DNA from: Acidimicrobiia bacterium
Lineage (GTDB): Bacteria > Actinomycetota > Acidimicrobiia > Spongiisociales > UBA5794
DNA length: 64,000 nucleotides
Assembly: GCA_029287195.1 (NCBI GenBank)
Contig: JARFRN010000249.1
Coordinates: 20,352 to 84,351, forward strand
Direction: 5' to 3'
How positions within the stretch are numbered: position 1 is the first letter of the stretch; each line of letters starts with the position of its first letter. Of the stretch, positions 12,121 to 35,913 are shown piece by piece. A model generated the notes under the pieces. That model was not told the origin of the DNA and did not search any database. It worked only from the letters and a program-made list of their open reading frames with translations. A program made the translations under genes and the position numbers.

Positions 12121-12543
12121 ATGCTGCGCTTCAAGGATCCCTTTGACGAGGTGGACCGCATGCTCAACACATTCGGTGGCGGGGCTCGCTCCGGGATCAT
12201 GCCTCTCGACGCATATGAGTTGGACGGCATATACACGCTTCGCTTCGACGTGCCCGGAGTCGAGCCGGATGCAGTAGACCTCACCGTCGAGAGCGGCATG
12301 TTGACGGTTACTGTCGAACGAACCCGCGAGGAAACTGAAGGTGCCACCTGGCTGCTCCGCGAGCGACCCGCGGGAATGCACCGTCGCGAAGTCCGACTCG
12401 GTGAGCGCCTCGATACGGGTCGGGTGGACGCGAAGTACGACAATGGAGTCCTCACCGTGACCATTCCGATGCGCGAGGAAGCCAAGCCCCACAAGGTGCA
12501 GATCAAAGGCGGAGGTAGCGAGAGGCTTACCTCCGGCGACTGA
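12121..12543 (+). CDS. Hsp20/alpha-crystallin family small heat-shock protein
   Basis: An ACD-type beta-sandwich pattern (DAYELDGIYTLRFDVPGVEPDAVDLTVESGMLTV...DAKYDNGVLTVTIP). The ATG at 12121 was preferred over the GTG at 12115 because of RBS spacing. Confidence 0.85.
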   Translation: MLRFKDPFDEVDRMLNTFGGGARSGIMPLDAYELDGIYTLRFDVPGVEPDAVDLTVESGMLTVTVERTREETEGATWLLRERPAGMHRREVRLGERLDTGRVDAKYDNGVLTVTIPMREEAKPHKVQIKGGGSERLTSGD

Positions 12544-12563
12544 ACAAGACTGCATCCCGAGGG

Positions 12564-12599
12564 ATCGGCCCCATTCGCACATGTGCGAGCGGGGCCGAT
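12564..12599 (+). terminator. Stem-loop downstream of the Hsp20 gene
   Basis: ATCGGCCCC...CGCACATGTGCG...GGGGCCGAT, a GC-rich hairpin with an internally palindromic loop. Confidence 0.35.
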
Positions 12600-12662
12600 G
12601 AATCCTGGACCCAATCACCCGCCGAGCCGGAAGAATGGGGCGGCCAGAATCGGAGGCGACCT

Positions 12663-13343
12663 TCATCCTGTCAGCTGCGACCAAAATCGGCGCGGGCTGT
12701 CGATGATACGGCTGGCAGCGGTCACGGCAAGGAGAGCCGTGGCGGGGTGATCATGCCCAAATCGAGCTATGAAAGTCTGCTGCTCCAGTGAAAGCGGTCC
12801 GAACCGGAGAGCCTCGATCAGTGCGACACCCGGGGAGTGTCCCTCTCCCGCTTGCAGAGCTGCGATGACACTGCCCGTGCGTCCCACGCCCGCCTGGCAG
12901 TGCACGAATACCGGTCCCGAGGCGGCAGTGATCGTCTCTCTGATCTCGGCGAGCTGCGCTGCAGTTGGGGTCTGGCCGTCCCGAATCGGGATGTGAATCC
13001 AAGCGAGCCCGGCTTCAGTGGCTCGGTTTGACGAGGTCGTAGGTTCGGCCTCAGCCCTGAGGTCGATCACTGCGACAACGCCACCATCGGCCAGGGCCGC
13101 GTATCCCTCGGGACTAGGTGCGGCACCCCGCCAAACGTTCTCGGTCACCCGAGCGAAACCCTCGACCCCGATGAAGGCTTCGACCGGCGAACCTCGCAGT
13201 AGTCGAACTGCGAAGTGCGGCGCCGCAACCAGCAGGTGCATCACCGTAAGGACTGCAGTCATCAGCAGCAACTTCCTCAGCCCGCGAGGCGTCGGTCGTC
13301 CTGCTATCTCCGAGGCGGCATCTTTGCCCGCTGTGATCATCAT
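12663..13343 (-). CDS. Protein-tyrosine / dual-specificity phosphatase family protein with an N-terminal membrane anchor
   Basis: CX5R P-loop HCQAGVGRTG, preceded by a hydrophobic segment LLLMTAVLTVMHLLVAA. Confidence 0.65.
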   Translation of the reverse strand: MMITAGKDAASEIAGRPTPRGLRKLLLMTAVLTVMHLLVAAPHFAVRLLRGSPVEAFIGVEGFARVTENVWRGAAPSPEGYAALADGGVVAVIDLRAEAEPTTSSNRATEAGLAWIHIPIRDGQTPTAAQLAEIRETITAASGPVFVHCQAGVGRTGSVIAALQAGEGHSPGVALIEALRFGPLSLEQQTFIARFGHDHPATALLAVTAASRIIDSPRRFWSQLTG

Positions 13344-13541
13344 CTTGATCTTTGTCGGCGCCCTTCCACCTCTCCCCGAGGATTCTGTCCGACGGATGCT
13401 GTCTGTGACCTGACCTAGGTCTACAGACGGTGCCCGGCTGGACCCGCACGTGCCATGCCGGAAGGCCGCAGCAGCCGGCTAGCCAGTCCGGCAAGCGACA
13501 GCCGACGAACGCCGAACCGCGGGTTCCGCTTCTTCCGCCTG

Positions 13542-14207
13542 CTACAGCTTGCGGTTCATCCGCTGGATGTGCCTCATCCGCCTGCGTGCGGAGCGGCTGG
13601 AGCCCTGAGTTCGAGGGGGCGGTTGTGGAGTGGACTGCGGAGGCGCGTCGGACATCGGCGTCCGGGTGGTCGGCCGCCAAATGCGTATGACCAGCAGACC
13701 GGTGGCAATCACCCCGGCGGAAACGATCCCGAGTGCGGCCGTTCTCAACACCTTGGCATCGGCGGCATCGGCTGCTACCGATGAACCCTCCGGGGTCCGA
13801 CCTTCAGCGGCGCCGACGGCTTCTTGATAGGCGGCCGGGATCGCGGATCCGGTCGGTTCGTAGGGTCGGGTCGCCGAGCAGATGCTGGCCAGAAATGGAG
13901 TCCGACTGTTCTCCGGAACGACCAGGTAAGTGGCGCCGGCCACGAACTTGGCAGCGTTTTCCCCGGTGGAGTCGGTGCCGTGGACTTCGACTCGGCCGGG
14001 CAGATCGCGGCCCTTCCATATGGACACGACGCGCATGGTGGCCGTGTGGCCGTCCTCGGTCGTAGCTGCCACCTCGCCGACGAACACGGTCGAGGCCTCG
14101 CCCAAGGCCTGGGCGACGTCGGTCGGAGGGCTACAGGTAGCGATCGCAGTTGCGGGTGCGGCCAGCAGCAGCCCGACGGCCGCGGTGAGGAGCAAGCTGC
14201 GCATCAT
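13542..14207 (-). CDS. Hypothetical exported protein (signal peptide plus C-terminal TM anchor). Last gene of a TadE/TadG-like operon.
   Basis: N-terminal signal MMRSLLLTAAVGLLLAAPATA, a C-terminal TM helix, then a basic Pro-rich tail. Its start overlaps the stop of the upstream gene by 4 bp. Confidence 0.45.
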   Translation of the reverse strand: MMRSLLLTAAVGLLLAAPATAIATCSPPTDVAQALGEASTVFVGEVAATTEDGHTATMRVVSIWKGRDLPGRVEVHGTDSTGENAAKFVAGATYLVVPENSRTPFLASICSATRPYEPTGSAIPAAYQEAVGAAEGRTPEGSSVAADAADAKVLRTAALGIVSAGVIATGLLVIRIWRPTTRTPMSDAPPQSTPQPPPRTQGSSRSARRRMRHIQRMNRKL

Positions 14208-15976
14208 CGAATCAGCTGGGTGTCAGGGTCGGCGGGGAAGAGGACGGCCCGGTCGAAATTGGGTCGGACGACCAGCAGACCCTGTCCCTCGGAACTCAGG
14301 GTTCTGGAAACGAACTGAGCGGCCACCTGCTCCTGAGACCCATTGCCTCGGTAAACGACCCGGGCCCACGGGGCAAAGAACACTCCTTCGAGGTCGAGCG
14401 CCGCCTGGCCGGCAAGCTGGTGGACGGCGGGCGACTCGGACCACATCGAGAGCGCTTCGAAGTTGCCGCTCTGCGGGCCGGTCCAGGTGAGAGCTCCCGT
14501 GCCGCCCGACATTGCAATACCCGAGGAGGCCGAGTAGTACATCATCGTGTTGTAGAGAAGCACGCTCCCCTCTCCGGCCTTGATCAGGTTGCCGTTACGC
14601 ATGTAGGCAATGGCTGCATCCGAGTCCGGGCTGTAGGGGTAACCACCGGCGGGTTTGCTGTTGAGTGCCAGCACACCGCTTGACTCGACGACTACATCGC
14701 CATCGAAGATGACGTCACCGGCAGGGAACACAACTGTGCGCTTGACTTCGAACGGATCGCAGTCGATGTGCCAGTTCCCGGCAGGTGCGATGATCTCGGT
14801 CCCCGGTCCGCCTTCAATGGAGCACGGATAGCCGGCCCCGGTCCAGGAAGTGAAACCGGTCGGCGTGCCCGTACCGCCATATGCGGCCACAAGGTTGTCG
14901 ATGTGCGGCGCCGGAGCATCTGTGCAGGGATCGATTTCCCACCCCACCGGCATCGGGTAAGCGGCTTTGCAGTTGAAGCGGTGATCGACCGGCGCTCGCG
15001 TTATTCGCTCTCTACCTGCGCTCGGGTCGGGGGACACGGTCCCGGAGCTGGTGCAGGCCGGGTAGTTGCATCCCGGTGTGCCCGGCGCCAACAGCCGGAG
15101 GGCACCGCAGCCCTCTCCAACCGTTAGCCCTCCGGGGCCCACGTGTGTGCCCGTCTCTGTATCACATCCGGTGGGCCCGTCGGCCCGGATGTAGGCATTG
15201 CTGCCGTCGACGTCGAGGACACCGTCGCCGCCGCATACGCCGGAGGCATCGGAATCGATCGCAATGTAGCCGGGGTCGAGTTCGCCGGTGTCCGTATTGA
15301 GGACGGCGTCGACGACGATGCCGCCGAGACCGCCGCCGCTGCCTGCTGCGGTGATGGTGTCACAGTCGTACCGCTCGAGGATGAGCAGGTTGAGCGCAAA
15401 GTCCTCGCTCGGTGGAATGAAGGTCTTGGCTACCGAGGAGACCGTTGTGTCCTGCGAGGCGGCGCCGATAATCGAGGCGAAGAGGTGTTCATGGTTGCTG
15501 GTTATCGAGACTCCGAACCGCTCGCATGGGTCGCCGTCATCGGTGCTGATCGCCTGGCCGCTGGCTCCGATGGCGGAGGGGTCGAGCAGCGCTGCCGCAT
15601 CAGGGACGGGGTAGGTCAGCGTTACCGTCCAGTCCCCTGATGTGCCCGTCGTGGTCGTTGACGGGGTCGAGGCATCACATGAGGTAGGGAACCCGAGGCA
15701 GGAGGCGCCGCTGAGCGTGCCCACCCCGGAGAGGTTCAGCTCGAGGTAGTCGAGGGCGGTTTCACAGCCGGCGCGACCGTCTCCTTCGGCTGCGTCGAGC
15801 GCTCCGGCGGTTGATGCAGCATCGGCGGCAACGAGGCTGGCGGCTCGGTTCGATCGCACCGCACCCAGGTCGATTACCAGAGCAGCGATGGCGAGCAGCG
15901 TAACCAAGGCGATGGCAACGATGAGCAGCACCGCACCTTCTTCTCCGGTCCGGCCGGTAGTTTTGGCCGTCCGCAT
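14204..15976 (-). CDS. TadG-like / Flp-pilus-assembly TadE/G-like domain protein (large secreted Gly/Thr-rich protein)
   Basis: The N-terminus GAVLLIVAIALVTLLAIAALVIDLGAVRSNRAASLVAADAASTAGA matches the Tad (PF13400-like) pattern. The remaining 590 aa are Gly/Asp/Thr-rich and extracellular-looking. Confidence 0.6.
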   Translation of the reverse strand: MRTAKTTGRTGEEGAVLLIVAIALVTLLAIAALVIDLGAVRSNRAASLVAADAASTAGALDAAEGDGRAGCETALDYLELNLSGVGTLSGASCLGFPTSCDASTPSTTTTGTSGDWTVTLTYPVPDAAALLDPSAIGASGQAISTDDGDPCERFGVSITSNHEHLFASIIGAASQDTTVSSVAKTFIPPSEDFALNLLILERYDCDTITAAGSGGGLGGIVVDAVLNTDTGELDPGYIAIDSDASGVCGGDGVLDVDGSNAYIRADGPTGCDTETGTHVGPGGLTVGEGCGALRLLAPGTPGCNYPACTSSGTVSPDPSAGRERITRAPVDHRFNCKAAYPMPVGWEIDPCTDAPAPHIDNLVAAYGGTGTPTGFTSWTGAGYPCSIEGGPGTEIIAPAGNWHIDCDPFEVKRTVVFPAGDVIFDGDVVVESSGVLALNSKPAGGYPYSPDSDAAIAYMRNGNLIKAGEGSVLLYNTMMYYSASSGIAMSGGTGALTWTGPQSGNFEALSMWSESPAVHQLAGQAALDLEGVFFAPWARVVYRGNGSQEQVAAQFVSRTLSSEGQGLLVVRPNFDRAVLFPADPDTQLIR

Positions 15977-16479
15977 CAGGTGGCCCGTTCGAAACGGACG
16001 GTCGACTCGCCCTGCAGGGTGAGAGTCGTGCTCCAGAGCACGAGAACCAGGTCGGAATCACGCGCCAACTGCACCTGGACGCGTCGTTCATCGTTGGGTC
16101 GACCGTCGGCAAAGCACGTGTTGTTTACCGACACGGTGCGAACTCCGGTGGAATTGACCAGGATGCGGGCGGTGCGGTCATCCGCATCGCTTCCGTCCGG
16201 GTAGACGTAGGCGATACAGACCGCGCGCCCTTGAATGCCGTCGTCGAGGTCACCCGTCGCCGAGCGGATCGCCACGTCGGCTACGTCGTTGAGCCACGTC
16301 GACATGCCGCTCTCCACCGGCAGCGTAGCCCCGTAGCGGGCAGCCTCCCGTGCCGCATTGTCCACCGAAATATTGCGATTGAACGCGATGCCGCCGGTGA
16401 TGATGCCCATGAGGATCATCAGCAGCAATGGCAGAACAAACGCAAATTCGACTAGTTGAGCACCTTGTTCGTTGCGCAT
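15976..16479 (-). CDS. TadE/TadF-like pseudopilin family protein
   Basis: The TadE N-terminal motif GAQLVEFAFVLPLLLMILMGIITGG, followed by AAREAARYG. The internal start MRNEQG was chosen. Confidence 0.65.
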   Translation of the reverse strand: MRNEQGAQLVEFAFVLPLLLMILMGIITGGIAFNRNISVDNAAREAARYGATLPVESGMSTWLNDVADVAIRSATGDLDDGIQGRAVCIAYVYPDGSDADDRTARILVNSTGVRTVSVNNTCFADGRPNDERRVQVQLARDSDLVLVLWSTTLTLQGESTVRFERAT

Positions 16480-16798
16480 GCGGGTTGTCCAGGTCGTCCG
16501 CCCATAGGATTCAGACCCGCCGGTGTCCATCGGTGGAGCCGTGCTCCGCCAAGCCCTTCTCGGTTTCATTGAGATCGCCTACCCCTTGCTGGCTCTCTTT
16601 CGACCTGAACGGCGATGACCGCCGCAGACAGATCGTCTTGCCGTGTTATCGGCAACTGAGAGCGAAATCTTGAGCGCGTTCCAGAAGCTCGACCGCAGCT
16701 CTTGCGCTGGGCTCGAGCAAGAACGAGTAGGGGGTTGGCTATTGGAATGCGGCTGCCACGGCGCGACAATGAACGCAGGTCGCACGAGGAGCGATGTC

Positions 16799-17173
16799 AT
16801 GCGCCGGGTTCTCAGAGGTGGCTTGCTCGGGGCTCTCCCCGGGGCCTTGTTGATCGGTATCGTCGTCACCTTGCATTCGTTGGAAGTGATCACATCCGAT
16901 CAGTCTCAGGTCGGGTTCATCGGGGTGCCGCTCCTGTTCTTCGGCCTGCTGATTGGAATGCTCGCCGGCGCGGCGACTGCAGGTAATACAGCTTCGGTGC
17001 TGGCATGGATGGGTATCGGGCTGCTGGCCGGCATCGGCTTGGGGGTGGTGCTTGCGCGGGTGATGGTGGGAGGCTGGCTCATACTGATGCCGCTCCTCAT
17101 CCTGGGAGGCGGGGTATATGGGGCGTGGCGGCACGAGAATCGTACGTCTCCCCCTTCCGCCATCACGCACTAG
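16799..17173 (+). CDS. Hypothetical small Gly-rich membrane protein
   Basis: Three to four predicted TM helices and good GC3 bias. It competes with a probably spurious 317-aa antisense ORF. Confidence 0.3.
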   Translation: MRRVLRGGLLGALPGALLIGIVVTLHSLEVITSDQSQVGFIGVPLLFFGLLIGMLAGAATAGNTASVLAWMGIGLLAGIGLGVVLARVMVGGWLILMPLLILGGGVYGAWRHENRTSPPSAITH

Positions 17174-17204
17174 CAACAGGGAGTCCCGGAAGGTCGATGG
17201 CCGG

Positions 17205-18893
17205 CTAACGGTTCCGGAACCGTTGCACAGCCCGGTTGATGGTTGGGAACGATTGGATCGGCCCGGCCGGTGCCAGAAGGCCGGCGCGGGTGAGCCGGTC
17301 GATTGTGGTGCTGTTGGTCCGAGCGACACCCACCACTTCGATTCCCAGGCTCGGTAGCTCACCGAGGAGTTCCTCCAGCATCTCGATCGCTGTGGTGTCG
17401 ATTGAGCCCACTCCGTCGAAGTCGAAGATGATCCACTCCTCGACACCCGGGTTGGTTTCCAATGCCTGACGCACCCGCTGATGGAACCACTCTGCGTTGG
17501 CGAAGAACAGCGGCGCATCAAATCGATAGACCAGCAGTCCGGGCAGTGGCCGCGCCGTCGGGAAGTCGTCAACTGCCACCCAGCCGTCGAGCTCTGAAGC
17601 ACCGCCGAGGACGGCATCGCTGGGTCTGGCGATACGCCATAGGGCGACTGCAGCCGACAATGCGACCGCGATGAGGACTCCGGTAAGTACATCGAAGATC
17701 ATCACGCCCAACGCAGTGACGGCTGCGAGCGCGAACTCAGATCGGCTCAGTCGCCACAACTCTTTGAAACCGGCTACGTCGATGATGGCAATGGCGGCGG
17801 CCAGGATTACCGATCCCAGGGCCGCCTGGGGGAAGTTGGCCAGCACCGGTCGCAAGAACAGCAGAGTAGCGGCGACGAAGAGGGCGGCCACCACGCCCGT
17901 CAGCTGGGAGTGAGTGCCGATGGACGCCGGCACGAACGATCGGCTGGCACTCGATGAGACCGGGAAACCCTGGGATATCCCGCTCGTCAGATTGCACGTG
18001 CCGAGAGCGATGAATTCCTGGTTGGGATCGATCCGATATCCGTGTTCGGCGCTGATGGATCTGGCTGTGAGAACGTTGTCGGAGTAGCCGACCAGGGCGA
18101 TGCCGAGGGCGGCCGGGATCAGCGCCGCCATGTCACTTCCACTCACATCCGGAAAGCCAAGCGCAGGCAATCCGGCGGGGATGTTGCCGACAACTGCGAT
18201 GCCGTGGTCGGCCAGCGAGAACAAAGTTGTGACGCCGGTCGCGAGCGTCACTGCGATCAGAGCCCCGGGTACTTTGGGCCAGCGGCGCAAGAAGAGGATC
18301 AACCCCAGTGTTGCCGTCCCCATGGCCAGGGTCGCAGCCCGGATCTCATCCAGCTCGGTGATCATCTCCGCAATGCGACCGAAGAAGTCATCGTTCTCGA
18401 TCGGGATGCCCGTTACCTTCGATATCTGGCTGCTGATCAAGGTGAGCCCGATCCCCGTGATATAGCCGACGAGAACCGGACGGGATAGCAGATCAGCGAG
18501 AAAGCCGAGGCGAAACGCGGCGGCAATCAAGCACACGGCAGCCACGGCCAGAGCGAGGGCAGCCATCAGCGCCGCGTACCGCACAGGATCGCCCGCCGCC
18601 ATCCCACCGACCGCCGTGGCGGCCAGGATGGCGGTTCCGGGCTCGGGTCCCACGCCGAGGTGACGCGACGTACCGAGGATCGCATAGGCGAAGAGTGCCA
18701 GTAGCACGGCATAGAACCCGGCCTCGGGGGGCATGCCGGCAATCTCGGCGTACGCCATCGACTGCGGTATCAGCATTGCCCCAACGGTCAATCCGCCGAG
18801 GAGATCGGCTCGGAGCCAGGAGCGCTGATAGTGGAGCAGACGGTCCAGTCCCGGAGCGAGCCGCAGCGGACCGATCGGGGCCTGCCGGTTCAT
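17205..18893 (-). CDS. SulP-family anion (sulfate/bicarbonate) permease with a C-terminal STAS domain
   Basis: A 562-aa polytopic membrane protein with typical SulP N-terminal motifs (AGLTVGAMLIPQSMAYAEIAGMPPEAGFYA) and a C-terminal STAS domain (IFDFDGVGSIDTTAIEMLEEL). Confidence 0.9.
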   Translation of the reverse strand: MNRQAPIGPLRLAPGLDRLLHYQRSWLRADLLGGLTVGAMLIPQSMAYAEIAGMPPEAGFYAVLLALFAYAILGTSRHLGVGPEPGTAILAATAVGGMAAGDPVRYAALMAALALAVAAVCLIAAAFRLGFLADLLSRPVLVGYITGIGLTLISSQISKVTGIPIENDDFFGRIAEMITELDEIRAATLAMGTATLGLILFLRRWPKVPGALIAVTLATGVTTLFSLADHGIAVVGNIPAGLPALGFPDVSGSDMAALIPAALGIALVGYSDNVLTARSISAEHGYRIDPNQEFIALGTCNLTSGISQGFPVSSSASRSFVPASIGTHSQLTGVVAALFVAATLLFLRPVLANFPQAALGSVILAAAIAIIDVAGFKELWRLSRSEFALAAVTALGVMIFDVLTGVLIAVALSAAVALWRIARPSDAVLGGASELDGWVAVDDFPTARPLPGLLVYRFDAPLFFANAEWFHQRVRQALETNPGVEEWIIFDFDGVGSIDTTAIEMLEELLGELPSLGIEVVGVARTNSTTIDRLTRAGLLAPAGPIQSFPTINRAVQRFRNR

Positions 18894-19075
18894 GGTCGGC
18901 TCCCATTCTGCGCAACCGGGTCGGGCATTCGGTCACCCTAGTGATATGCAGTTGTGGGCCCGACCGCATCTCTGCGCGGGATGGGACTTTCGCTCCCGGC
19001 TGCCGGCGATGGGCTGGTGTACGGCTGAAGCGCCGCTCTGTGATTCGTCGCTCGAGTACGAAAGGGGACGGACTA

Positions 19076-19276
19076 GTGGCTACGTTCCTGTTGTGGCTGG
19101 TGCTACTCGTCGTGGCTTGGCCGCTGGCGATCCTGGCACTCATCCTGTATCCGATCGTCTGGCTGATCAGCCTCCCGTTTCGGCTGGTGGGCATCTCGGT
19201 GAAGGGGTTGCTCGAGTTGATTGGCTCGATCATCAGGCTCCCCGCCAGGGTGCCGGGCGGCCCGAGGGAGGCTTGA
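19076..19276 (+). CDS. Possible small 2-TM membrane protein (GTG start)
   Basis: VATFLLWLVLLVVAWPLAILALILYPIVWLISLPFRLVGISVKGLL, with the RBS-like AAAGGGGA upstream. Weak evidence. Confidence 0.25.
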   Translation: MATFLLWLVLLVVAWPLAILALILYPIVWLISLPFRLVGISVKGLLELIGSIIRLPARVPGGPREA

Positions 19277-19475
19277 CTCGGAGCTCTGGCCCGGTCTGGT
19301 AGGGCCCAGGGATCGTCAGTGGGCTGTCAGGGAGCCGATATCGCTCCCGCCCGTGTAGGCGGAGCCGTCGAGGTAGAGGCCGCCATCGGCGGTACCGCCG
19401 ATGTGAATGTTGCCGGTCGTGCCACTGGAACCGGCCTGCGGTTTGGCTTCGAGTCGGTGTCGGGCCGGGCGCGCC

Positions 19476-28474: not shown

Positions 28475-28570
28475 GCGGTCGGTGTTCGCTCCACGAGAAT
28501 TGCCTCGCGTTTCCCATCAGCGGCCGGATTGAGTTGCAGCAGAGTACGGTGTCGGGAAGAGAGGAGCGGC

Positions 28571-30781
28571 ATGAAGCGGACTGCCTATCGAACTTGTCCA
28601 CTGTGTGAGGCAACCTGCGGACTCGAGATCACCATCGAGGACGAGCAGGTCAAGCTGATTCGAGGCGACCAAGCGGACCCGTTCTCAGGCGGGTTTCTGT
28701 GTCCCAAGGGCTCGACGCTGGGTCGGCTTCGGGACGATCCTGATCGGCTGCGAGCCCCGCTCATCAAGCGTGACGGGGGCCATGTGGAGGTGGCCTGGGA
28801 GGAGGCGTGGGAGGCAGTCGCCGCTGGGCTCGATCCCTACCTTGCCGCCGACCGCAACGCTGTGGCCGTGTACGTCGGCAATCCCAATGCCCATTCGTTC
28901 CAGAACTCGCTGGCGCTGCGGCCCTTCATCAAGGCGGTCGGAACTCGCAATTTCTTCTCTGCCTCCACCGTTGATCAGATGCCGCGCCAGGTCGCATGTG
29001 CGTACATGTTCGGCGGCGGGTTGATCACACCGGTGCCGGACATCGACCGCACCGACTATCTCCTGATCTTGGGGGCGAATCCGTACGAGTCGAACGGTTC
29101 ACTCGCCACCGCCCCGGACTGGCCGGGTCGTCTCGAGGCAATTCGGGCCCGCCGGGGTACGGTGGTTGTGGTCGACCCCCGTCGGACGAAGACTGCGGAG
29201 ACCGCCGACCGCCATCTCGCCATCAAACCGGGAACGGACGCAGCACTCCTTCTATCGATCGTCTCGGTGCTTGTGTCCGAGGACCTTGTCGACCTCGGGC
29301 GCCTCGACGATCACGTCGTGGGGGCCGAGCAGGTGGCGGCTGCTGCCGCCAGATTCACACCGGAGACGGTGGCCGGGCGAACCGGGATCGCGGCCATCGA
29401 GATCCGCCGTCTGGCTCGGGAGATCGCCGCAGCCCCTTCGGCGGCCGTGTACGGCCGGATCGGCAACCACACGGTGGAGTTCGGCACCGTGGCCGCCTGG
29501 GCTGCCGACGTCATCAACGTCCTCACCGGCAATCTCGATCGGCCCGGGGGTGTGATGTTCACCCGACCGATCCATCAGCCTACGACCCGGGCTCCGAGAA
29601 GGTTCCAGCCGGGACGTTGGAGATCGCGTGTGCGTGACCTCCCCGAGTTCTTCGGGGAGCTCCCGGTGGCGACGATGGCCGACGAGATGCTGGTCGAAGG
29701 AGAGGGCCGGGTTCGGGCGTTCATCACGGTCGGGGGCAACCCGGTGCTCACGACGCCGCATGCCGGTCGGTTGGACGAGGCGCTTGCCGGTCTCGATTTC
29801 ATGGTGTCGGTCGATCCCTATCTCAATGAGACCACCCGCCACGCAGATGTGATACTTCCGGTGCCGCCGGCGCTCGAAACCTCCCATTTTGACCTGGCGT
29901 TCACGATCCTGGCGATTCGAAACGTTGCGAAATACTCACCCGCCGTCTTCGAGCCCTCCGGCCCGTCCGAGTTCGACATCCTCGTCAAGCTCACCGGAAT
30001 CGTCATGGGCATGGGACCGGAGGCCGATCCGGCGGCGCTATTCCAGATGTCGCTCGCTTCTCAGGTGCAGCGGGCCGTATCCGATCCGGGATCGCCGGTC
30101 CATGGCCGCGACCCTGCAGATATCCTCGAGGCTCTGGCGGACTGGGAGGGCCCGGAACAGGCGCTGGATCTGATGATCAGGATGGGGGCCTGGGGGGATG
30201 GATTTGGCGCGGATCCCGATGGCTGGACCCTGGCCGAGGTTGCCGCCCACCCGCACGGTGTGGATCTGGGAGCGCTCGAGCCGCGGGTGCCCGAAGTTCT
30301 GGCAACGGAGTCGGGCAAGATCGAACTCGCGCCCGAGCCGGTGATCGCCGATCTCGATCGACTCTGGGGCTGGCTCGAAGCCCCGGAGCCGGAGATGGTC
30401 CTGGTAGGTCGGCGCGAGCTCCGCTCCAACAACTCGTGGTTGCACAACGTGAGCGTCCTAGTCAAGGGCAAACACCGTTGCACGCTCGAGCTCAACCCGC
30501 AGGACGCCGCTGGTCTCGGGCTCGACGATGGAAACCTGGCCACCGTGACCTCCAAGGTCGGCTCCGTCGAACTGCCGGTCTCACTGTCCGAACGTATCCG
30601 GCCGGGAGTGGTATCGATTCCCTACGGATGGGGCCATGCGATGCCCGGCACGCAGCTCTCGGTTGCGTCCCAACGACCGGGTGTCAACACCAACCTGCTC
30701 ACCGACTCGGGTCCCATTGATCCGTTGTCGGGGAACGCAGTACTCAACGGCATCCCTGTAGAGGTGGCTGCATCATCCTGA
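28571..30781 (+). CDS. Molybdopterin-dependent oxidoreductase (MopB superfamily, cytoplasmic formate-dehydrogenase/FdhF-like)
   Basis: N-terminal 4Fe-4S motif CPLCEATCGLEI...FLCPKG. Internal molybdopterin-binding motifs include LILGANPYESNG, VVVDPRRT and the C-terminal MopB_CT domain. Confidence 0.8.
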   Translation: MKRTAYRTCPLCEATCGLEITIEDEQVKLIRGDQADPFSGGFLCPKGSTLGRLRDDPDRLRAPLIKRDGGHVEVAWEEAWEAVAAGLDPYLAADRNAVAVYVGNPNAHSFQNSLALRPFIKAVGTRNFFSASTVDQMPRQVACAYMFGGGLITPVPDIDRTDYLLILGANPYESNGSLATAPDWPGRLEAIRARRGTVVVVDPRRTKTAETADRHLAIKPGTDAALLLSIVSVLVSEDLVDLGRLDDHVVGAEQVAAAAARFTPETVAGRTGIAAIEIRRLAREIAAAPSAAVYGRIGNHTVEFGTVAAWAADVINVLTGNLDRPGGVMFTRPIHQPTTRAPRRFQPGRWRSRVRDLPEFFGELPVATMADEMLVEGEGRVRAFITVGGNPVLTTPHAGRLDEALAGLDFMVSVDPYLNETTRHADVILPVPPALETSHFDLAFTILAIRNVAKYSPAVFEPSGPSEFDILVKLTGIVMGMGPEADPAALFQMSLASQVQRAVSDPGSPVHGRDPADILEALADWEGPEQALDLMIRMGAWGDGFGADPDGWTLAEVAAHPHGVDLGALEPRVPEVLATESGKIELAPEPVIADLDRLWGWLEAPEPEMVLVGRRELRSNNSWLHNVSVLVKGKHRCTLELNPQDAAGLGLDDGNLATVTSKVGSVELPVSLSERIRPGVVSIPYGWGHAMPGTQLSVASQRPGVNTNLLTDSGPIDPLSGNAVLNGIPVEVAASS

Positions 30782-31710: not shown

Positions 31711-32451
31711 TCATCCCCCCATCCCCAGACCAAGAACGATCCCGAGCACTGCGATCACCATCTGCAATAGGACGTACGCCGCAACGATCCATACTCCAAC
31801 CGTCACGCCCCGGTCGATTCTGGCAGCCACGCCGTCGTTGCTCGTCGCACCTTCTGCAATCCGAGCTCTGCGTAGGTTCGCGCTGTGGACGAGGCCGGCC
31901 ACGGGCAGCGCGAGAAGGAGTACGACATGGAGAATGCCCATGAGCAGGAACAGGCCGTCGAGCCGTTCGGTCTCGAAGAGGAGCGTGTCGGTGAACTGTC
32001 GATCAAGGGGCGGAAGGCCCCGAGGCGGCTCGAACATGAGCGTCATGAGGATGTAGGCGCCAAAGATGAGGTAGTAGGCGATGTCGAGAAGCCTGAGCAC
32101 CTTTGTGCCCGTATCAGGCGTGCCGGCGAATGCTTGCTTCTCGTACATTTGGCCAAACCGGCGGATGGCCGGGCCCATGACGGCGACGATCGCTGTCATC
32201 GCCGCCGTTACGAGCAGCTCGAGGCTTGCAAACGACATGTCGACCCGCCCGTCGTCTACGTTTACCGTGGCTACCAGGTACACGATGACCGCGGCAGCGG
32301 CGGCTCCGAGCCAGAGGATCGCACTTCGGATGCGGCGCCTGTGTGCTCTATCTTCCTCGATTGAACGCCTGACCTTGGCGAATAGATCAGCGCTCGGGAC
32401 GTAGTCGTCAGCCGTGTGCAAAGTGTCGGTGAGTTGCTGTTCCAGGCTCAT
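31711..32451 (-). CDS. Anti-sigma-factor-like membrane protein, paralogous in its core to the gene at 33035-33433
   Basis: Cytoplasmic N-terminus, a TM helix, then the shared core KVLRLLDIAYYLIFGAYILMTLMFE...LLMGILHVVLLLALPVAGLV. Its ATG overlaps the sigma-factor stop in an ATGA arrangement. Confidence 0.5.
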   Translation of the reverse strand: MSLEQQLTDTLHTADDYVPSADLFAKVRRSIEEDRAHRRRIRSAILWLGAAAAAVIVYLVATVNVDDGRVDMSFASLELLVTAAMTAIVAVMGPAIRRFGQMYEKQAFAGTPDTGTKVLRLLDIAYYLIFGAYILMTLMFEPPRGLPPLDRQFTDTLLFETERLDGLFLLMGILHVVLLLALPVAGLVHSANLRRARIAEGATSNDGVAARIDRGVTVGVWIVAAYVLLQMVIAVLGIVLGLGMGG

Positions 32452-32981
32452 GTGGTCACTCCCAGTCGGCTCCGAAGCGCCTCCATACCGCGGCGACAGT
32501 GTGTCTTCACCGAGTTTCTGGATATGTCGAGTGTCTCAGCGATCTCGGACTCCGATAACTCGAGGTAGAACCGGAGCAGCAGGCAGTCACGCTGCCGCGG
32601 GGAGAGGGCGCGTACCTCTCCGAGCAATCGCCTGCGCTCGTCATCCATGACGAGTACATCTTCTGGCGCGTCGGGTTCGGCTCCCGCCGGGATCGCCTCC
32701 TGATGGCGGAGCGACATGAGCCCGCGCCGGTTGTGATCACGTGCGAGGTTGATGACGATAGAACGCAGATACGGTGCGGCTTTCGATGGATCTTTGATCC
32801 GGTGAGCAGCCCGGTGGAGTCTGATGAAGGCCTCTTGCACGAGGTCCTCGGCCGCATTCCGGTCGTCGGTGAAGAGGCGCGCCAACCTCACGAGTCGGGC
32901 GCCTTCCAGCCGGAACAGCTCGGTGACGAGCGCGTCGCGATCGGTGGCAACGAACGCGGCGGCAACCTGATCGGTCACCAT
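32448..32981 (-). CDS. ECF (sigma-70 family, group 4) RNA polymerase sigma factor
   Basis: Region 2 (EDLVQEAFIRLHRAAHRIKDPSKAAPYLRSIVINLARD) and region 4 (LSPRQRDCLLLRFYLELSESEIAETLDISRNSVKTHCRRG). The start MVTDQV was preferred; MIAIP at 33035 is also possible. Confidence 0.8.
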   Translation of the reverse strand: MVTDQVAAAFVATDRDALVTELFRLEGARLVRLARLFTDDRNAAEDLVQEAFIRLHRAAHRIKDPSKAAPYLRSIVINLARDHNRRGLMSLRHQEAIPAGAEPDAPEDVLVMDDERRRLLGEVRALSPRQRDCLLLRFYLELSESEIAETLDISRNSVKTHCRRGMEALRSRLGVTT

Positions 32982-33034
32982 GAGCAACCATTCCTTGAGC
33001 TGCCGCCGTCGGGGGCGGACGGGGATAGCGATCA

Positions 33035-33433
33035 TTAGGCAGCCTTCGGACCTTTGGCGTCCTCGTCGAGACGTTTCCCCAATCCGAGCAAGCGCCCGAT
33101 GATGGGAAGGCTGAGGACATTGGCGCCGTGCAAGATGCCCATGATGAGCAACATGCCGCCAATCCGCAGTGCTTCGTGGCGAAGTTGTGCGGCGCCGACG
33201 GTCTGTGCCCACGCGTCTTGCTGCTCAAACACCGTTGTGAACAGGATGTAAGCCGAGAAGATCAGGTAGTAGGCGATGTCCATTAGAACGATGTAGCTCT
33301 TGCCGGTCCTCGGGTTGGCCCGAAACACGTCCGCGGCGTAGCTCCGACCGAATCGCTTGATGAGTGGACCAAGTGCGACAAGTGTCAACACCAAGCCGCC
33401 GAACGTGATGAGTTCCAGCACCCACCAGTTCAT
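33035..33433 (-). CDS. Small membrane protein, paralog of the core of the gene at 31711-32451
   Basis: MNWWVLELITFGGLVLTLVALGPLIKRFGRSY...IVLMDIAYYLIFSAYILFTTVFE...LLIMGILHGANVLSLPIIG. Confidence 0.5.
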   Translation of the reverse strand: MNWWVLELITFGGLVLTLVALGPLIKRFGRSYAADVFRANPRTGKSYIVLMDIAYYLIFSAYILFTTVFEQQDAWAQTVGAAQLRHEALRIGGMLLIMGILHGANVLSLPIIGRLLGLGKRLDEDAKGPKAA

Positions 33434-33491
33434 AAGCTCTCCTTCCCTCTCAACATCATGCCAGGCTGAGTCACTGGTTGGCTGCCCGATT

Positions 33492-33842
33492 TCACGAGGG
33501 AGCCATCTGCCGCTCGACCTCGCTCCCTGATCGGTACGCCGCCCAGCTCGTGACGAGGGCAAGTATTCCTATCGCAACCGCCGGCGGGAACCAGAAGAAT
33601 GCGATCCCTATCGATCCGGGGAGCACCCCGACCGCCACGAGCCTGCTGCCTTGTACTTGGTTGCGACGCAACAGAATGAGGCCGGACAGGACGAGCGCTG
33701 CGCCCGTTGCCATGACAGTCAGCAGGATCAACTGACCGTAGAGCGGTCCCGTGTCATCGGGGTCTACGAGATTGCCTATGCCCAGCATGAGCATCAGGAC
33801 GCCGATGACTGCTGCGCTGACAAACCACCAACGAGTCTTCAT
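33492..33842 (-). CDS. Small hypothetical membrane protein, first gene of the ECF sigma operon
   Basis: Four predicted TM helices (MKTRWWFVSAAVIGVLMLMLGIG...). Confidence 0.4.
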   Translation of the reverse strand: MKTRWWFVSAAVIGVLMLMLGIGNLVDPDDTGPLYGQLILLTVMATGAALVLSGLILLRRNQVQGSRLVAVGVLPGSIGIAFFWFPPAVAIGILALVTSWAAYRSGSEVERQMAPS

Positions 33843-34005
33843 GTGAAGCTCCTCCTCTAGGGCCGCGGATCGGCCCACTCACACAATCAGACGATCGAGG
33901 ACGGCCGTTGGGTGACAGATGATTTTGTTCTCGAGTACCAGCAAGTTGCGTCAGGACGGCGGAGCTTCAGCAAGGACGAAGAACGGACCGCCCCGGCGGG
34001 TGGCC

Positions 34006-34055
34006 CGCGTGGTCGGGGACCGCGGGGATCCGTCGCTCTCTGGTTTCTGAGACCC
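34006..34055 (-). repeat. Degenerate direct repeat of the tRNA-Phe 3' half (att-like footprint)
   Basis: GCGTGGTCGGGGACCGCGGGGATCCGTCGCTCTCTGGTTTCTGAGACC aligns at about 80% identity with the plus-strand sequence of the tRNA-Phe 3' half (35838-35890), in the same orientation. Confidence 0.55.
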
Positions 34056-34477
34056 ACAGCGGATATCGCGCTACGCGTCAGTAGAAATCCGACTGGGTCC
34101 ATCTTGCGGGGATTGGGAAACGCAGCGGGATGTACCGACACCCAGTGAGTTCGCCGAATGGCACATAACGGGCACCAATCGGTGCCACCCGCAAAACGGT
34201 CGGCAGACGCAGTCCCGGTGTGGACTGCGTCTGCCGACATCTGTCCCGTCACCACAGTGCGCCGGGTATGGATGTCGTTGACCGTCTGCATAGCCACCGG
34301 CCCGCAACACCCGGCGTGAGCCATCGAAGGGCAGGGCGGATAGCCGCGGAGTGGCCGACGGGCAGGAAACAGAAACGAGTCATGCAATCAACGGCTACCA
34401 AGGCCATCTTCTTGACCAGACAACGTGGCGCAAGTGTAGGTTGGCCTGAGATGCAGTAGCGAGGGAGAGGAACTGCG

Positions 34478-34864
34478 ATGTTTGCCAACATACCTATTCA
34501 TGCCGTGCTACCAGCTTCCGATCTGGACCGTGCCAAACGGTGGTACTCGGAGAAGCTTGGTCTGGAGCCGGTCAGCGAGTACGAATACGGCGGAGTCCAA
34601 TACGAAACCGGCGGAGTCATGTTCCTTGTATATCCGTCTCAGTTCGCGGGAACCAACAAAGCGACCGCCGCCGGCTTCCGCGTCGACGACTTCGATGAAG
34701 CGGTGTCGGTGCTCCGATCCAATGGCGTTGTCTTCGAAGATGTTGATTTTGGGGAGATGGGCTCGACGGTCGACGGTGTGATCACCTTGGCCGACGGCAA
34801 GGACAAGGCGGCCTGGTTCAAGGACAGTGAGGGGAATGTGCTCTCGCTCTCGAGCATCGGTTGA
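34478..34864 (+). CDS. VOC-family (glyoxalase / bleomycin-resistance / dioxygenase-fold) protein
   Basis: A 128-aa protein: MFANIPIHAVLPASDLDRAKRWYSEKLGLEP...GGVMFLV.... Confidence 0.75.
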   Translation: MFANIPIHAVLPASDLDRAKRWYSEKLGLEPVSEYEYGGVQYETGGVMFLVYPSQFAGTNKATAAGFRVDDFDEAVSVLRSNGVVFEDVDFGEMGSTVDGVITLADGKDKAAWFKDSEGNVLSLSSIG

Positions 34865-34930
34865 CGCCGGTATCCCGTCAAGAGGCACCGTCTCGCCTCA
34901 ACTCAATGTCGGCGGCGGAGGGAGCACGGG

Positions 34931-35902
34931 GTGATTGCTGGTGTGCCGACCGGGGACGAGGTGGCCACTTTCTGTCCGTTGTGTGTTTCCCGTTGTGGAG
35001 CGCGGGCGAGCGTGTCGAATGGAACGTTCACGTTATCTCGCGATCCGTCGCACCCCACCGGGAAGGCGCTGTGCGTCAAGGGTAAGGCCGCACCGGAGAT
35101 CTCTGCTCATCCGGACCGGTTGCATCATCCGCTGCAGCGCGCCAACTCGAAGGGGGTGTCGGATCCCGGCTGGCAGCGAATCGGATAGGAACATTCGCCG
35201 CCGCCGACCAGAGCGTCGGCCCGCAAGAGCCATCGCGGCTTGCCCACGCAAGCCTGGGACGAAGTTTCCGAGCAGCCGGTCCGTGTCGATGCGGCCGCCG
35301 GCGGCACCGACATCGATGAACCTGATCGGTTGGCGCTGGTTGGAAGCGTCGAGGTGGCTACGACCGGAGGGACGGTCGCCTGTCGGCCGGCATTCGACCT
35401 CGTGGCAGAGCAGAGCCGCGCCTCGTCGCCTCCCATTGCCGAGGAGGTCACCGGTGTACCCGCGGCCGAGATCGAACGTACCGCCGAGGTACTGTGGCAG
35501 CACCGCCCTATCGCCTTCTACACGTGGAGTGGTCTCGAGCAGCACAGCGACACTACCCAGATCATCCGGGCTATCAACGTGCTCTATGCGCTGACCGGCT
35601 GCCTTGATGCTCCGGGAGGCAACGTACGGTTCACCTCGGTCCCGTCGAACCCGATCAACGGCGCCGAACTACTCGCCTCGGCGCAGGCGGCGAAAACCAT
35701 CGGCGTGGCTGATCGACCGCTGGGCCCTGCTCGATTCGGGTTCGTGACGGGGGAGGATTTCTACACGGCGGCGCTCGAGGGTGCGACGCCAGAAGCCTTG
35801 CGAAATGCCAAGGAACCCCGCTCTCTGAGCGGGGTTCGCGTGGTCAGGGACGGCGTCGATCCGTCGACCTCTGGTTTTTCAGACCAGCGCTCTACCAACT
35901 GA
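34931..35902 (+). pseudogene. Decayed paralog of the molybdopterin oxidoreductase at 28571-30781. Frameshifted, internally deleted, and 3'-truncated at tRNA-Phe.
   Basis: Frame 1 gives FCPLCVSRCGARASV...ALCVKGKAAPE (the N-terminal 4Fe-4S motif of the intact paralog). Frame 2 gives WDEVSE...INVLYALTGCLDAPGGNVRFT, which matches ADVINVLTGNLDRPGGVMFT. The ORF stops about 60 bp inside the tRNA-Phe gene. Confidence 0.55.
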
Positions 35903-35913
35903 GCTACCTGACC
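35841..35913 (-). tRNA. tRNA-Phe (GAA)
   Basis: Reverse complement: GGTCAGGTAGCTCAGTTGGTAGAGCGCTGGTCTGAAAAACCAGAGGTCGACGGATCGACGCCGTCCCTGACCA. It folds as a cloverleaf with anticodon GAA. The T-loop reads ATCGACG (A at position 54), which is atypical. Confidence 0.75.

Follow-up and report, generated by a model that had tools for sequence, protein, structure and literature searches.

The tRNA-Phe gene of an uncultured Acidimicrobiia bacterium is followed, 1.8 kb downstream, by an incomplete copy of its own 3′ half, and the question raised by this locus is how that copy arose and whether the DNA between the two copies came with it. The locus lies in a stretch of 64,000 nucleotides (contig JARFRN010000249.1, positions 20,352 to 84,351), which is here called the window. 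A sequence-only reading of the window had described the pair as an attachment (att)-like footprint of an integrase, bracketing a segment with a VOC-family gene and a decayed oxidoreductase. Our analysis makes it probable that the incomplete copy is a tRNA-Phe 3′ fragment displaced by an older insertion, of which it is the scar. The following features are at issue first.

Minus strand, tRNA-Glu, tRNA-Asp and tRNA-Phe cluster, with tRNA-Phe the last of Glu-Asp-Phe
35840/1-35913, minus strand, intact tRNA-Phe (GAA), called by ARAGORN and matched by the Rfam tRNA model with 70 bits
35837-35885, minus strand, copy A of the repeat, from the anticodon stem of tRNA-Phe to 4 nt past its 3′ end
34006-34054, minus strand, copy B of the repeat, 41/49 identical to copy A, a probable displaced tRNA-Phe 3′ fragment of the attR type

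The ∼50-bp direct repeat of the tRNA-Phe 3′ half that had been claimed is real. A repeat search of the window returned 34006-34054 and 35837-35885 as a direct, ungapped repeat of 49 nt with 41 identical positions (84%) and a start-to-start spacing of 1831 nt. The similarity persisted in a gapped local alignment of both regions with flanks of 40-60 nt added, which gave the identical 49 nt. Read in tRNA orientation (GGTCT...ACCACGCG), the repeat runs from the anticodon stem to 4 nt beyond the 3′ end of tRNA-Phe; it takes in the three bases that close the 5′ strand of the anticodon stem, then the anticodon loop, variable region and T arm, and finally the acceptor 3′ strand plus four further bases. 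Its significance was assessed by scanning the 49-mer across both strands of the window, with 200 dinucleotide-preserving shuffles as control. The second-best real match was 27/49, and the shuffle maxima (n=200) had a mean of 27.9 (sd 0.9) and a highest value of 31/49. No partial copy of the equivalent 3′ parts of tRNA-Asp and tRNA-Glu was found in the window scan (best 28).

Set against a shuffle maximum of 31, a match of 41/49 speaks strongly against chance similarity. Copy B might otherwise be explained by a functional RNA, tRNA-like or regulatory, with no link to integration, since 6 of the 8 mismatches of copy B lie in the anticodon, variable and T loops and could hint at retained stems. 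However, the T stem also carries a mismatch, copy B was called as a tRNA neither by ARAGORN nor by the Rfam tRNA model at E≤10, no other Rfam match was obtained at this threshold, and the fold of 119 nt around the hairpin that directly follows copy B (33985-34006) is no better than that of shuffles (z +0.2). No homologs of copy B were found in other genomes, and a single open reading frame (ORF) spans it (33887-34387, minus strand), for which Pfam gave no match. To chance or an RNA function of this kind we give almost no weight. A 19-nt tRNA-like match in two related contigs (L065/L066) does not extend and was taken as chance.

Many metagenome contigs are 99.2-100% identical to the window and represent the natural population of this organism; the sequence of copy B is identical in all nine of the nine population contigs that cover it. 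The T-stem motif GACGG, which is specific to this lineage, is retained in copy B, which argues that copy B derives from this lineage's kind of tRNA-Phe.

In genomic islands at tRNA genes, integration splits the gene, the element's own copy restores the tRNA, and the fragment that was displaced comes to mark the island's distal end (PMC4383910). The signature used by Islander (Hudson et al. 2015, PMC4383910) is a 3′ fragment downstream of the gene, in the same orientation and reaching the tRNA end. The 3′ end of tRNA-Phe in the window is at its low coordinate, pointing to the 1.8-kb segment, and copy B is located 1.83 kb downstream on the same strand and reaches the tRNA 3′ end, a geometry that fits a tRNA fragment displaced by a tyrosine integrase. 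The incoming element would have borne its own copy of the tRNA-Phe segment, rebuilding an intact tRNA beside the element, and the former 3′ half, together with whatever followed it, would have been pushed to the far end of the element. Later deletion of the integrase and transfer genes would have left a 1.8-kb mosaic between the fragment and tRNA-Phe. We infer that such an element, on integrating, gave rise to copy B and was the source of at least part of the 1.8 kb, and that the ∼16% divergence between the copies reflects the age of the event.

Elements with the expected boundaries are present at tRNA-Phe in relatives. One Acidimicrobiia metagenome-assembled genome (MAG; L029) carries a 6.9-kb element at tRNA-Phe (12523-19422), bounded by perfect 46-nt direct repeats (GGTCTGAAAAACC...CCCTGACCAC) that are 6946 nt apart and whose starting point within the tRNA coincides with that of copy B. 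The genes of the element specify a 357-aa tyrosine integrase (PF00589) convergent on the tRNA, a TrwC relaxase (PF08751, E=8e-77) accompanied by an AAA_30 helicase, and a protein containing RTX and PD40 repeats; the relaxase frame is broken, possibly by long-read sequencing errors. A second locus, in another Acidimicrobiia MAG (L028, from 12579), has an integrase identical to that of L029 and a relaxase 99% identical, with no distal repeat within its 8.6 kb. The family was tested as an integrative and mobilizable element (IME), that is, for a recombinase plus a relaxase, att bounds, and no conjugation apparatus. The full set was found in L029 only, and just the integrase end and its arm were seen at L015, L012, L151 and the other loci.

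The boundaries of the L029 element also bear on the possibility that copy B is the relic of a duplicated tRNA-Phe, formed with no integrase involved, in which a second gene at 34006-34080 lost its 5′ half. Copy B resembles the lineage's own tRNA-Phe, as noted above, but its similarity extends no further than the anticodon stem/loop, the very point at which the real att repeats begin. Local alignment found no trace of the tRNA-Phe 5′ half next to copy B, tRNA-Asp and tRNA-Glu are without such copies, and the relatives examined carry a single tRNA-Phe at the locus. We regard a duplication of this kind as very unlikely.

The same element family was found at this very site in sister strains. Two contigs, L015 and L012, follow the window with 99.2-99.7% identity on the right-hand side of the tRNA and change to foreign DNA at 35839/40 (breakpoints at 35839 in L015 and 35840 in L012). 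In L015, the C-terminal part of an integrase gene lies directly at tRNA-Phe, and its product is 93% identical to the L029 integrase; L012 is too short for the integrase gene and has the same arm as L015. This arm between integrase and tRNA is 85-93% identical over the six loci compared. A third contig, L006, holds the VOC gene, the pseudogene, the tRNA-proximal hairpin and the tRNA 3′ half up to its breakpoint at 35882, in the anticodon loop, and continues into unrelated DNA in which no homology to the L029/L028 element was found beyond the att block. These contigs would be the proximal (L015/L012) and distal (L006) junctions expected from an insertion into a strain already holding the 1.8-kb segment. 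In the sister strains, a small mobilizable element with a complete relative in L029 has entered tRNA-Phe and displaced the present 3′ half, hairpin and pseudogene. The att block shared with the sister-strain element, 35839/40-35882, is on this evidence the working att site. The presence of the element in sister strains, together with the distal junction in L006, argues that tRNA-Phe is still in use as an integration site and is a live hot spot. The proposal of an integrase footprint is therefore well supported by the side, orientation and extent of copy B, by the 46-nt repeats of L029 and by the integrase at tRNA-Phe in a sister strain. One further contig, L016, was considered as a variant junction and rejected, because its first 67 nt (1-67) are a Nextera adapter fused inside tRNA-Phe, an assembly artefact.

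Two additional loci, L151 (1266-2024) and L152 (1-298), carry the same integrase family beside tRNA-Phe, and their 163-aa flanking protein is 79% identical to that of the window. No distal repeat was found within their 2 kb of sequence. In L151 the integrase is reduced to residues 160-357, 93% identical to the L029 protein, and this locus would represent an intermediate stage of decay.

What, then, is the DNA between the two copies? Reading from copy B towards tRNA-Phe, it is made up as follows.

33985-34006, minus strand, imperfect GC-rich hairpin directly after copy B, recognized from sequence only
34055-34477, no strand, ∼420 nt of non-coding sequence for which no relative was detected, with overlapping ORFs lacking a Pfam match
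34478-34864, plus strand, intact VOC/glyoxalase-family gene of 128 aa (PF00903, E=7e-9)
34931-35782, plus strand, molybdopterin-oxidoreductase pseudogene, with PF04879 in its first piece and DNA homology to relatives
34931-35188, plus strand, Fe4S4 part of the pseudogene, closing with an in-frame TAG at 35186-35188
35191-35251, plus strand, deletion scar of the pseudogene, ∼61 nt in place of ∼596 nt of the intact gene (compared with L019)
35252-35782, plus strand, middle part of the pseudogene
35783-35799, 17 bases where the truncated pseudogene is joined to conserved sequence next to the tRNA, delimited by the ends of homology
35800-35837, minus strand, terminator-like tRNA-proximal hairpin (stem-loop 35813-35837 plus a 13-nt tail)

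The VOC gene is intact, as had been proposed; it scores 36.6 bits against the PF00903 profile (curated cut-off 20.6), from which its function is predicted, and its exact protein sequence is present on 10 contigs. The nearest relative (L069) shows 86% protein identity, and the shared DNA is limited to 34434-34933, stopping exactly at the start of the pseudogene. No Pfam integrase was found among the ORFs of the interval.

The oxidoreductase copy at 34931-35782 is a pseudogene, because PF04879 is the only part detected of its domain set (Fe4S4, molybdopterin, dinucleotide-binding), an in-frame TAG closes its first piece, there is a net internal deletion of ∼535 nt, and ∼1 kb is gone from the 3′ end, including the dinucleotide-binding domain. 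DNA homology to relatives (L019, L018 and L020; also L068) is confined to two blocks, 34957-35190 and 35252-35781, and the pseudogene was further examined by tblastn with the proteins P0025, P0062 and P0008. The frameshift that the sequence-only reading had assumed is not there, as the pieces lie in one frame and are separated by the in-frame TAG. Nor is the pseudogene a close paralog of the nearby intact gene (28529-30781), with which it shares only 35-39% identity over two short stretches, as against 81-88% for metagenomic relatives, which were located elsewhere in unrelated chromosomal contexts. It had also been thought to run straight into tRNA-Phe. The long ORF that enters the tRNA gene is a reading-frame accident, and homology of the pseudogene ends at 35781/2, followed by the 17 bases and the stem-loop at 35813-35837.

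The closest oxidoreductase subfamily is broken in other metagenome contigs as well, by a 1-nt deletion in L019 (7817-10221) and by internal deletions in L068 (2706-4339), which suggests repeated independent decay. A programmed frameshift, considered because splits recur at a similar place in several homologs, was rejected since the lesions differ between loci.

Within the non-coding DNA, a perfect inverted repeat of 17 bp, enclosing a loop of 6 nt, occupies 34199-34238 (fold z-scores −5.8 and −7.0). It is followed on the minus strand by CCGUUUUGCG and has a terminator-like look. A promoter/terminator consensus scan was uninformative, the DNA being GC-rich.

Two hairpins lie next to the repeat copies. 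The imperfect hairpin at 33985-34006 is placed relative to ACCACGCG in the same way as the hairpin after the real tRNA-Phe, and is a weak candidate for the tRNA operon's original terminator; its fold is unremarkable, as given above, and the similarity of the copy B flank to the native flank in L029 was not significant (137/2000 shuffles reach the score). The tRNA-proximal hairpin at 35800-35837 folds with −30.7 kcal/mol (z −2.6). In L021, 33 of its 38 bases are the same, with paired changes in the stem, and 0/2000 shuffles reach the alignment score. In L151/L152, a version with ∼70% identity is placed between tRNA-Phe and the element arm. The L151 homolog, 30 nt long, thereby occupies a position that canonical integration cannot produce.

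Divergence at 4-fold synonymous sites between the window and L021 is near saturation (K ∼0.86), whereas the distance between copies A and B is only 0.18; this contrast fits either horizontal spread of the element arm or selection on the terminator. Conservation of the hairpin in two related lineages makes the right-hand boundary of the insert ambiguous. The hairpin may be element-borne, as the last arm of an old element, or it may be a native terminator, with the right breakpoint at 35799/35800. Taking up the first of these, we tentatively offer a possibility that we ourselves rate as rather doubtful: 35800-35837 might be the last surviving arm of the lost element, a tRNA-Phe-targeting family might repeatedly displace the terminator of the host tRNA operon, and variants of the L151/L152 type might have captured that terminator by aberrant excision, so that it would now be mobile with the element. 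If this were true, the locus would record serial reuse of one att site and an exchange of terminators between host and element.

To the left of copy B, the relevant feature is a conserved group of genes.

31711-33842, four-gene block encoding a 246-aa membrane protein, an ECF sigma factor, and 132-aa and 116-aa membrane proteins

Two of the four proteins, those of 246 aa and 132 aa, are paralogs with ∼37-46% identity. L064, L065 and L067 retain the block; homology ends there at 33917/33899, and the neighbours on the copy B side differ in each. A genome scan with the neighbouring 389-aa protein returned Acidimicrobiia MAGs, the closest being L021 (51% identity for the 389-aa protein and 89% for acetyl-CoA synthetase). 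Among the relatives, the left block is present in L064, L065 and L067 and the tRNA cluster in L021, L149 and L151, and none has the two side by side. Many independent assemblies end (L021, L022, L027) or start (L149, L010, L013, L014, L017) at tRNA-Phe or no more than a few hundred bases from it, which would be expected if the site varies between strains. Further to the left, contig L063 (850-1521) diverges from the window at 33141, where an EamA-family transporter gene replaces the region of the 132-aa gene; it represents either a second variable point or a chimeric contig.

The main rival explanation is a patchwork hot spot. Copy B would here be a true att scar, left by an event that has nothing to do with what the segment now contains; the hairpin would be a native terminator with the breakpoint at 35799/35800, and the VOC gene and the oxidoreductase would have arrived through separate illegitimate recombination or deletion in a region that is variable in every relative. 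In its favour are the hairpin conserved with paired stem changes in L021 and L151, the contrast between K ∼0.86 and 0.18, the VOC-relative block ending at 34933 precisely where the pseudogene begins, the different neighbour of the left gene block in each relative, and the limits of the conserved left and right blocks, which are at 33917 and 35800 and do not coincide with the repeat. Canonical integration, however, leaves no native DNA between the rebuilt tRNA and the insert, and extra events would be needed for the distal copy B. Moreover, the element family keeps 85-93% identity in its arms even between hosts with saturated neutral sites, and conservation of the hairpin is therefore no proof of a native origin. 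We consider the patchwork a possible explanation, though an unlikely one.

A number of findings likewise weigh against copy B being the scar of an element that gave rise to the 1.8 kb. Element origin of the insert requires an element-borne hairpin, and yet the hairpin is kept in L021 and L151, where a native terminator fits at least as well. No integrase or relaxase homolog was found across the 64-kb window, including by tblastn with the L029 integrase (the absence of an integrase agrees with what the sequence-only reading had stated), and the segment has no similarity to the L029/L028 element outside the att block. The closest VOC and oxidoreductase relatives are apart, in ordinary chromosomal contexts and without tRNA-Phe or an integrase. 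The base composition of the segment and its GC3 are just slightly under those of neighbouring genes, differences too small for composition to serve as a sign of foreign origin. Finally, the interval falls outside two standard filters for islands, having no integrase inside and a length below 2 kb, and no empty site was found in relatives, either in the genome scan or in look-ups of left and right flank neighbours: L064, L065 and L067 have the left block without an adjacent tRNA-Phe.

The separate contexts of the VOC and oxidoreductase relatives, and a composition that is barely distinctive, argue that the 1.8-kb segment is a mosaic. An intact element carrying a VOC gene together with an oxidoreductase was sought and rejected, as the contexts in L018-L020, L068 and L069-L073 are without tRNA-Phe, an integrase or the gene pair. 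The earlier proposal of a decayed integrated element is thus upheld in part: an att scar whose integrase has been lost is the probable explanation of copy B, but the whole 1.8 kb is at most a possible remnant of a single element; its two genes occur separately in relatives.

As an att scar, the locus provides a clean, dated example of island decay at a tRNA gene, in which the fresh (sister strains), half-decayed (L151) and scar (window) stages would be represented. In addition, it delimits the att site used by a small element family of uncultured Acidimicrobiia that had not been described before and that combines an integrase with a TrwC relaxase. In annotation, the VOC gene is best treated as accessory DNA of uncertain origin, and the two oxidoreductase ORFs as a single entry labelled pseudogene. 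The scar itself is of a well-known kind and raises no new biological question; the strain polymorphism and the newly delineated element family in an uncultured lineage add slightly to its interest.

Among known systems, the closest formal comparison is with the islands collected by Islander. The criteria applied (PMC4383910) were a cognate fragment, the end/orientation rule, an integrase in the interval, a length of 2-200 kb and no overlap with a conserved domain. The locus has the fragment, the correct end and orientation, and no domain overlap; an integrase is lacking and the interval is too short (1831 nt). It resembles the anticodon-centred att class of Islander (PMC4383910) in having an intact tRNA and a downstream cognate 3′ fragment that starts at the anticodon loop. 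It differs from Islander islands (PMC4383910) in an interval of only 1.83 kb, without an integrase, and in a fragment that is 16% diverged. Because the integrase is absent and the interval is shorter than 2 kb, we call it a scar and not a functional island.

IMEs (Guedon et al. 2017, PMC5704250) are the nearest counterpart of the L029/L028 element, which likewise has a tyrosine integrase and a TrwC-type relaxase/AAA_30 helicase with no conjugation apparatus, its transfer being predicted from these genes. The window, unlike IMEs (PMC5704250), retains none of the IME genes.

The integrase of the L029 family is 28-36% identical to integrases of actinobacterial plasmids, with 36% for a Rhodococcus plasmid and 29% for a Micromonospora rosaria plasmid (NC_006910.1). 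Among phages, Gordonia phage Schmidt has the best-matching integrase, a distant one (34.6% identity, with 96% of the length aligned), and no match in the phage and plasmid collections exceeded ∼36%. The L029-family element shows no phage genes. Scans of IMG/VR viral contigs with the att block and with the hairpin gave no match. The actinomycete integrative elements pSAM2 and pMEA100 have att identities of 40-60 bp that extend from the anticodon loop to the tRNA 3′ end, and pMEA100 uses tRNA-Phe. Elements of this type replicate, and transfer by means of an FtsK/TraB-type translocase. By description only, the L029 family is similar to them in belonging to the same phylum, in the same kind of att segment and, for pMEA100, in the same target tRNA, but it differs in having a TrwC relaxase.

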